In this document: positions 2,445 through 4,447 of the stretch, in pieces | Layout of the letters: each line of letters starts with the position of its first letter | Position numbering within the stretch: the first letter of the stretch is position 1 | IMG/VR virus record: IMGVR_UViG_2537561618_000005 | Length of the DNA: 13,194 bases | Strand: one strand, 5' to 3' | From: a virus | Taxonomy: Duplodnaviria; Heunggongvirae; Uroviricota; Caudoviricetes | Position numbers and translations under genes: made by a program | The notes under the pieces: model-generated | Database searches by the model: none | What the model was told of the DNA's origin: nothing | The model's input: the letters and a program-made list of their open reading frames with translations, nothing else

Positions 2445-3284
2445 GTGGTCACACTCTGCCATGTGTTCGGGGTTCATCGCAGCAGCTACAGATACTGGAA
2501 AAACCGTCCTGAAAAACCAGACGGCAGACGGGCTGTATTACGCAGTCAGGTACTTGAGCTACATGGCATCAGCCACGGTTCGGCCGGAGCAAGAAGCATC
2601 GCCACAATGGCAACCCGGAGAGGCTACCAGATGGGACGCTGGCTTGCTGGCAGGCTCATGAAAGAGCTGGGGCTGGTCAGCTGTCAGCAGCCGACTCACC
2701 GGTATAAACGTGGTGGTCATGAACATGTTGCTATCCCTAACTACCTTGAAAGGCAGTTCGCCGTGACCGAGCCAAATCAGGTGTGGTGCGGTGATGTGAC
2801 CTATATCTGGACGGGTAAGCGCTGGGCGTACCTCGCCGTTGTTCTCGACCTGTTCGCAAGAAAACCAGTGGGCTGGGCCATGTCGTTCTCGCCGGACAGC
2901 AGGCTCACCATGAAAGCGCTGGAAATGGCATGGGAAACCCGTGGTAAGCCCGGCGGGGTGATGTTCCACAGCGATCAGGGCAGTCATTATACGAGCAGGC
3001 AGTTCCGGCAGTTATTGTGGCGATACCAGATCAGACAGAGTATGAGCCGGCGCGGAAACTGCTGGGATAACAGCCCAATGGAACGCTTCTTCAGGAGTCT
3101 GAAGAACGAATGGATGCCGGTGGTGGGTTACGTAAGCTTCAGCGAGGCAGCTCACGCCATAACGGACTATATCGTTGGATATTACAGTGCACTAAGACCG
3201 CACGAATATAACGGTGGGTTACCCCCAAACGAATCGGAAAATCGATACTGGAAAAACTCTAACTCGGTGGCCAGTTTTTGTTGA
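2445..3284 (+). CDS. IS911 OrfB-like transposase catalytic (DDE) domain, normally expressed as an OrfAB fusion
   Basis: Translation ...[94 protein letters not shown]...[49 protein letters not shown] matches IS3-family OrfB. The frame is intact as far as I can see. The first codon at 2445 is GTG. Confidence 0.85.
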
Positions 3285-3292
3285 CCACTTCA

Positions 3293-4447
3293 TGGATGCC
3301 TGTTGAGCAGGAAGCGCCAACCCAGACTGGCTGGGATTTAACTGGCAACGCAACCGGGATTCTGGAACTCTCCGTGAAGTGCAACATGGGCGATCCGGAT
3401 AACGATTTCTTCGAGCTTCGTGCAGATGACCTGCGTGATGAGCGTTCTTACCGTCGCCGCATCCAGGCATCCGCCAAAAAACTGGCGAATAACATTGAGT
3501 CAGCGATTGCCAAACAGGCAACTGAAATGGGCTCGCTTGTTGTTCACGATACCCGCGCAATTGGTCCATCGACTGGCCTGCCTGGCTGGGATTTTGTGTC
3601 TGATGCAGAGCGACTGATGTTCTCCCGTGAGCTAAACCGCGACATGGGCATCAGTTACTTCCTGAACCCTGACGATTACCGCAAAGCAGGCCGCAACCTG
3701 GTAGATGGTGACATCTTCGGGCGCGTTCCTGAAGAAGCATATCGAAACGGTACTATTCAGCGTCAGATTGCTGGCTTTGATGAAATTCTTCGCTCACCGA
3801 AACTTCCGGCAGTTACCAAGTCAACCGCGACTGGTGTAACTGTTTCTGGTGCGCAGAAGTTTAAGCCGCAGGCATACACCCTTGATACCGATGGTAACAA
3901 AGAGAACGTCGACAACCGTGTTGCAACGGTGACCGTATCCTCCACCACCGGATTTAAGCGCGGCGACAAAATCAGCTTCATTGGTGTGAAGTTCCTGTCT
4001 CAGATGGCGAAGAATGTGCTGACTGATGACGCGACTTTCTCAATCACCCGTGTGATCGATGGTACTCACATCGAAATCACGCCGAAGCCGATTGCGCTGG
4101 ATGACGCGTCACTGACAAAAGAAGAGAAGGCTTACGCTAACGTAAACACCTCTCTTGCTGATACCACTCCGGTAAACGTTCTGAACGTGGCAACAACCAC
4201 CGCTAACGTGTTCTGGGCTGATGACTCAATCCGCCTGCTGTCTCAGCCGATCCCGGTAACCCATGAACTGTTTGCTGGCATGAAAACGTCTTCCTTCAGC
4301 ATTCCAGGTATTGGTGTTAACGGCATCTTCGCAACGCAGGGTGATATCAACACTCTGTCTGGTAAGTGCCGTATTGCTGTGTGGTATTCAGCATGTGCTG
4401 TACGACCAGAGGCAATTGGTGTTGGTCTGCCTAACCAGACCGCGTGA
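3293..4447 (+). pseudogene. P22-type major capsid (coat) protein gene, 5'-truncated by the IS911 right end (about 45 N-terminal codons missing)
   Basis: Translation [16 protein letters not shown]...[33 protein letters not shown]...[39 protein letters not shown]...[34 protein letters not shown]...[14 protein letters not shown] is collinear with P22 gp5 coat as I remember it. The homology starts exactly at the IS911 boundary, with no native start codon or RBS. Confidence 0.9.

Follow-up and report, generated by a model that had tools for sequence, protein, structure and literature searches.

A 5'-truncated coat gene at an IS911 end in a P22-like prophage remnant of Shigella flexneri 4343-70

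Composition of the contig

The window analysed here, 13,194 bp long, represents contig AFHC01000013.1 of Shigella flexneri 4343-70 (GCA_000213475.2) in its entirety and is a mosaic of insertion sequences and a P22-like prophage remnant. It opens with a plus-strand fragment of an IS66-family transposase gene (1-357; Pfam DDE_Tnp_IS66, E = 3e-29), which is cut by a plus-strand element outlined by its open reading frames (358-1688) that we take to be a copy of IS2 from its end sequence, the end TAGACTGGCCCC beginning at 358 inside the IS66-family gene. The orfB of this IS2 is split into pieces of 194 and 88 aa, as it also is in AFGV01, but several complete genomes have it intact or fused. The block 358-2044 as such is found at >99.5% identity in several S. 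flexneri genomes. Next follow a 95-aa gene on the minus strand (1734-2021), here called Y, which belongs to no Pfam family and is a late-region lambdoid gene, and a plus-strand IS911 of 1248 bp (2045-3292). The sequence from 3293 to 4447, likewise on the plus strand, corresponds by homology and Pfam to codons 48-431 of a P22-type major capsid gene and will be referred to as the pseudogene coat'; immediately 3' of it a scan found a terminator-like hairpin on the same strand (4456-4471).

The remaining prophage genes recognized by Pfam, all on the plus strand between 4694 and 11534, are gp4, gp10, the gp26 needle, gp14, gp7, gp20 and a truncated gp16. The truncation of gp16 is made by an 85-bp left-end fragment on the plus strand (11535-11619), which is IS600 as judged from its end and orfA start. 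It abuts an IS3-family element identified from its open reading frames (11619-12924, plus strand) that is IS629/IS1203-like, and the whole of 11535-12924 is thus a nested arrangement in which this element has inserted into IS600, leaving only 85 bp of the latter; its orfB is itself broken into pieces of 118 and 222 aa. At the right edge it cuts a phage-type integrase, of which the N-terminal part remains on the minus strand (12925-13182; Pfam Arm-DNA-bind_3, E = 8e-17). This right flank (12925-13194) has also been reassorted, in that psiF-phoA or small phage ORFs, and not the integrase, come after the IS3-family element in other strains. No terminase, portal or scaffold gene was found among the ORFs and Pfam matches of the 13-kb contig.

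The assignment of IS911 is based on its terminal repeats, its reading frames and its identity to annotated copies. On the left the terminal repeat IRL (TGAAGTGGCACACTG...) has its first base at 2045 and occupies about 2045-2080, on the right IRR (...GTTTTTGTTGACCACTTCA) occupies about 3257-3292 and ends at 3292, and the element between and including these two ends shares 99.0% identity along all of its length with E. coli RefSeq entries annotated as "IS3-like element IS911 family transposase". Its orfB (2445-3284) and the slippery site AAAAAAG are present, but the A-run at codons 2-4 of orfA (about 2121) holds six A rather than the seven seen on comparison with locus L003, and orfA is consequently frameshifted, so that the two frames are not both intact. 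The loss of this one base brings ATG 2041 and ATG 2044, which straddle the boundary between flank and element, in frame with the orfA body, and the resulting frame at 2041-2418 is found in GenBank as a 125-aa product. The identical IS911 sequence adjoins coat' in AFGV01 as well, where it is flipped.

The coat breakpoint and the truncated reading frame

Homology to coat begins at 3293, the base directly after the last base of IS911 at 3292, and since the end of the element and the start of the homology meet to the base, chance is not an issue for this coincidence. In a megablast search with 3293-4447 the eight P22-like phages recovered (IME10, Louie, APC_JM3.2 and others; 97-98% identity) all begin to match at 3293, every E. 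coli prophage match begins there too, and a three-way base-level alignment has identity from T3293 rightward and unrelated sequence to the left of it. An apparent link of IS2 to coat in one E. coli hit, H17, turned out to be an unrelated intact P22-like prophage with IS2 located elsewhere. The coat coding sequence of IME10 starts 141 nt upstream of the matched part, and translation places 3293-3295 as codon W48 and the ATG at 3296 as M49 of a 431-codon gene, the loss at the 5' end thus being 141 nt or 47 codons (residues 1-47). The first-pass annotation had put the start of the homology exactly at the IS911 terminus (3292/3293), on which megablast and the base-level alignment agree, and had estimated the breakpoint at coat residue 45-48, which can now be sharpened to W48 as the first residue retained.

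The product of coat' matches the Pfam profile P22_CoatProtein (PF11651) with E = 1.7e-145 and 485 bits over positions 50-422 of 423, and it is accordingly recognizable as a P22-type major capsid protein; it is however not of full length, the N-arm being absent, and it has lost its operon context, and it represents a piece of a family member and not a working one. Its upstream neighbours are IS911, Y, IS2 and the IS66-family fragment instead of portal, scaffold and terminase genes, which stand in the intact order in IME10, Louie and the S. flexneri prophage of CP026871.1 (L008). In the latter the same stretch of prophage is found at 99.6-99.8% identity, its 431-aa coat gene standing behind scaffold and a portal gene that is truncated, and the retained part of coat' is identical to this coat gene in 1155 of 1155 nt. 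According to the 2.6-angstrom procapsid structure the domains of P22 gp5 are the N-arm (2-30), the P-domain (31-33, 79-127 and 358-416), the F-loop (34-50), the E-loop (51-78), the A-domain and the I-domain, and the contacts to the scaffolding protein are made by D14, E15 and E18 of the N-arm together with N4 (PMC9965877). The missing segment is thus the whole N-arm, as had been claimed at first pass, the first P-domain segment, which is a strand, and most of the F-loop. Compared with gp5, which has the HK97 fold (PDB 2xyy, 5uu5, 8i1v), coat' keeps the E-loop and the P-, A- and I-domains, but residues 1-47, and hence the scaffold-binding surface, are absent.

The frame of coat' opens after the TAA at 3260-3262 and contains three in-frame starts, TTG 3278, TTG 3281 and ATG 3296. 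The first and last of these had been listed at first pass, whereas TTG 3281 was overlooked, although it is the GenBank start of EGJ92116.1 (388 aa); this codon overlaps the orfB stop TGA at 3282-3284 in the sequence TTGA. Furthermore, a product of 383 aa is recorded on 161 contigs under the name "coat protein, partial [Shigella flexneri]". The earlier statement that neither listed start has an obvious ribosome binding site is fully borne out for ATG 3296, where the computed duplex with the anti-Shine-Dalgarno sequence amounts to -0.9 kcal/mol, but only partly for the TTG codons 3278 and 3281, which are preceded by a weak GGTGG (3266-3270) with -5.1 kcal/mol; for comparison the native coat start gives -5.6 and the other genes of the remnant give -4.7 to -8.4 kcal/mol.

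The IRR contains an outward-facing TTGACC on the plus strand (3281-3286), which in the IS3 family is conceived of as the -35 half of the circle-junction promoter Pjunc (PMC3219604). In the circle junction the IRL hexamer CACACT would fall 17 bp downstream of it, but the coat' flank offers no such partner, since the hexamers found 16-18 bp downstream (TTGAGC, TGAGCA and GAGCAG) match TATAAT in at most two of six positions, and a transcript from here would moreover begin downstream of ATG 3296. A promoter scan over 1900-4800 likewise returned no sigma-70-like site. The first-pass view of a TTGACC without a convincing -10 is therefore upheld, and no hybrid promoter has formed at the coat' flank.

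Alternative readings and the history of the remnant

We consider it very probable that 3293-4447 is a 5'-truncated coat pseudogene of a P22-like prophage in S. flexneri 4343-70 with IS911 marking the breakpoint, and it is in this light that the alternatives should be weighed. It could be argued that the junction, or the orientation of the IS at it, is an artefact of draft assembly through repeats, as the 13-kb draft contig holds IS2, IS911, IS600 and IS629-like repeats and three other S. flexneri assemblies have IS911 in the opposite orientation at the breakpoint. Two independent Logan assemblies, of SRR060520 and ERR048305, however extend unbranched from coat' through some 28 nt of IRR-specific sequence, and the complete genome CP034060.1 likewise has the junction of IRL and Y. 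The IRR/coat' junction is thus real at the level of reads, and an artefact seems quite unlikely. The linkage of Y and coat' by one and the same copy of IS911 is nevertheless putative, resting as it does on a 2011 draft contig that crosses three multi-copy IS elements. The exact IRR/coat' junction is spanned in none of 5,426 complete E. coli genomes, it was not found among GTDB species representatives either as IRR/coat' or by an orientation-neutral pattern, and a scan of JGI metagenomes did not find it; it is confined to the S. flexneri isolates reached via the protein index.

A different question is whether the truncated frame may be expressed or even used. The phage late promoter and antiterminator would be gone from upstream, but IS911 is in 4343-70 transcribed toward coat' with no strong terminator in between, which could allow weak read-through, and the TTGA overlap of TTG 3281 with the orfB stop would fit translational coupling. 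Low-level translation by coupling or read-through is accordingly possible, though normal OrfAB translation is lost because orfA is frameshifted. If made, the product would lack the scaffold-binding arm and could not build capsids, the partner genes being absent too. One might still imagine a co-opted role for it, such as that of a dominant-negative subunit poisoning the capsid assembly of infecting P22-like phages, and the intact frame of 383-389 codons, the direction of IS911 transcription in this strain, the weak GGTGG and overlapping stop at TTG 3281, and the wide occurrence of the remnant in S. flexneri are in agreement with such a notion. The open frame of 383 codons is however no sign of selection, since not a single substitution separates it from the intact gene and none has thus accumulated since the truncation. 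In addition, the promoter scan found nothing to drive it, the frameshift in orfA removes the normal OrfAB translation needed for coupling, the IS appears to face the opposite way in most strains, and the neighbouring genes of the remnant are in decay. Co-option is hence very unlikely, and we hold with considerable confidence that coat' is best read as an inert pseudogene.

The manner in which the coat gene was truncated is constrained by the left flank. Gene Y lies on the strand opposite to coat', with IS911 situated 23 bp upstream of its ATG, whereas in phage HF4s and in E. coli prophages Y usually shares the strand of the structural genes and follows immediately on Rz and a terminator-like hairpin, with the native upstream sequence reading ...GCGGGGCTTTTTATTGCAAC. 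The protein is conserved, and its gene is located behind Rz/Rz1 and such a hairpin in E. coli, Salmonella and Enterobacter prophages of the lambdoid and P22-like types (for instance at 3965-4309 of locus L021 and 9022-9309 of locus L022). A simple insertion of IS911, in which the rest of the coat gene was intact and its 5' part lay across the element, would be in line with a breakpoint exactly at the IS end, and the TGG found there could be one copy of a target duplication. Such an insertion would however have ...AACACCGTG(TGG) as its left neighbour, and the left flank is instead Y on the opposite strand and not scaffold or the 5' end of coat; the flanking triplets are TGA on the left and TGG on the right and so form no 3-bp target duplication, and the 13-kb contig is without scaffold, portal and terminase. 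Simple insertion is consequently refuted for contig AFHC01000013.1 and highly improbable as an account of the locus, and the lack of a duplication is just what is expected if the junction is of the recombinant or deletion type. We conclude that the IS911/coat' junction stems from an IS-associated rearrangement or deletion.

That a short coat is natural for this lineage and meets the IS end by accident, which the first-pass annotation had itself set against truncation, has a negligible probability and nothing in its favour, since the 431-aa coat of the uninterrupted CP026871.1 locus aligns with P22 gp5 (PDB 2xyy, 5uu5, 8i1v) over residues 1-430 with E = 1e-214 and W48 opposite gp5 W48, all eight phage relatives likewise carry 431-aa coats aligned from gp5 residue 1, and coat' enters its Pfam profile only at position 50.

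Returning to the truncated pseudogene, the most likely history comprises three steps, the order of which we infer rather than observe. IS911 would first have entered the prophage, the sister strain still having IS911 in its portal gene with scaffold and coat intact. An IS911-associated deletion would then have removed the DNA from the IS end to coat codon 48, either by a second insertion at the TGG of this codon followed by recombination between the two copies or by adjacent deletion, and the outer flanks would finally have been shuffled by recombination among the many copies of IS911. CP026871.1 has the same junction of IS911 and Y, joined via IS911 to the portal gene, and its arrangement has the look of a preceding step in this decay. 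On its other side the coat'-linked IS911 of CP034060.1 and AFGV01 meets the start region of a prophage integrase, and the flanks have thus been reassorted among IS911 copies, which is to be anticipated given the expansion of IS911, IS600 and IS2 in the genome. That integrase start region (L003 7960-8748) is itself split by IS600, and the split integrase is about 98.5% identical to the integrase that lies beside proA and the gtr serotype-conversion cluster; from the existence of two integrases this similar it follows that two related prophage remnants coexist in CP034060.1 and AFGV01. Compared with L008, gp26 of the window is short of 51 nt at about 7367-7383 (265 versus 282 aa) and gp7 of 84 nt at about 8389-8400 (202 versus 230 aa), both losses being located at short repeats and common to all remnant-bearing strains seen.

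In a wider context the locus is not unusual. IS1, IS2, IS4, IS600 and IS911 have expanded in Shigella, where IS911, IS600 and IS2 account for a large share of the pseudogenes, and the IS-generated pseudogenes and IS-bounded prophage remnants of Shigella display the same cutting of genes at IS ends, the same piling up of IS elements and the same strain-to-strain variation by recombination between IS copies (PMC7373316). There is no essential difference between these and coat', which is one instance of an already known kind of IS-generated pseudogene, and one already deposited in GenBank as "coat protein" or "coat protein, partial". As a gene it is of minor weight and should be treated as a pseudogene and not as a 388-aa "coat protein". 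It is however a clean and datable case of stepwise prophage decay, given the zero substitutions relative to the intact gene of the sister strain.

Orientation of IS911 at the two breakpoints

The first-pass annotation spoke of the IS911 right end at the coat breakpoint, and this is correct for the present lineage, namely 4343-70 (3285-3300), SRR060520 and ERR048305, but does not apply to other S. flexneri genomes, which have the left end there. In CP034060.1, AFGV01 and AMJW01 (L003 9990-10005, L004 3775-3790 and L005 1244-1262) the IRL is joined to the same coat base as ...GTGTGCCACTTCA/TGGATGCC, and AMJW01 (L005 1251-1257) has three extra bases in the form IRL/CCA/TGGATG, this CCA being reverse-complementary to the TGG next to it. 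Two states likewise exist for the breakpoint that lies 23 bp upstream of Y, since IRL/TCATTGCAAC is found in the window (2021-2052) and in CP034060.1, and the IRR adjoins Y in at least nine other loci (L008-L017, near 9977), as IRR/TCATTGCAAC in eight loci and as IRR/TTGCAAC, without TCA, in CP026871.1 (L008 9975-9985). The native sequence upstream of Y reads TTATTGCAAC and not TCATTGCAAC; the doubled TCA at the Y junctions suggests slippage, and TCA is missing only in CP026871.1.

Homologous recombination between IS911 copies, leading to inversion or deletion, suggests itself as an explanation, but it has to be rejected on logical grounds, since the junctions between IS ends and flanks are invariant under homologous recombination, which therefore cannot cause the polymorphism. 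With both flanks occurring in two states, the minimum called for is two non-homologous events placed precisely at IS tips, and the simple three-step history outlined above leaves the orientation polymorphism unexplained. That IS911 should have inserted independently at one and the same nucleotide in either orientation, and this at two sites, is unlikely, and the likeness of either target site to the IS911 ends is by eye weak. The tips of IRL and IRR do share the terminal 8 bp TGAAGTGG, and we tentatively suggest, while regarding it as rather doubtful, that IS911 may invert in place or that its tips may exchange flanks by a transposase-type reaction at these 8 bp. Candidate routes are a flip in place, recombination between an IRL and an IRR tip, and a second insertion directly next to a resident end, after which the first copy is lost. 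Head-to-head IS911 pairs (CCACTTCA-NNN-TGAAGTGG) are conceivable intermediates, but no intermediates of a flip were seen among the loci compared here. A flip with the usual 3-nt stagger can be rejected, since it predicts GCAACCA/IS/TCAATGCC whereas the window reads GCAATGA/IS/TGGATGCC.

We know of no description of an exact flip of IS911 in situ. The closest parallel is the targeting of IS911 ends by the IS911 transposase when OrfA is limiting, that is by OrfAB without OrfA, as this is summarized in PMC7986276 and PMC2909936 with reference to Loot 2002 and Rousseau 2008. There as here the events are located exactly at the IS911 tips, but the published products, in the form these summaries give them, are insertions beside a resident end, whereas the two breakpoints described here display an exact swap of orientation. 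If an in-place inversion or tip exchange is indeed responsible, it would represent an undescribed activity of an IS3-family transposase resembling site-specific recombination in natural populations, and if furthermore recurrent and driven by transposase, it would amount to a new mode of rearrangement for the IS3 family and would be of relevance to tools that call IS insertions from junction reads.
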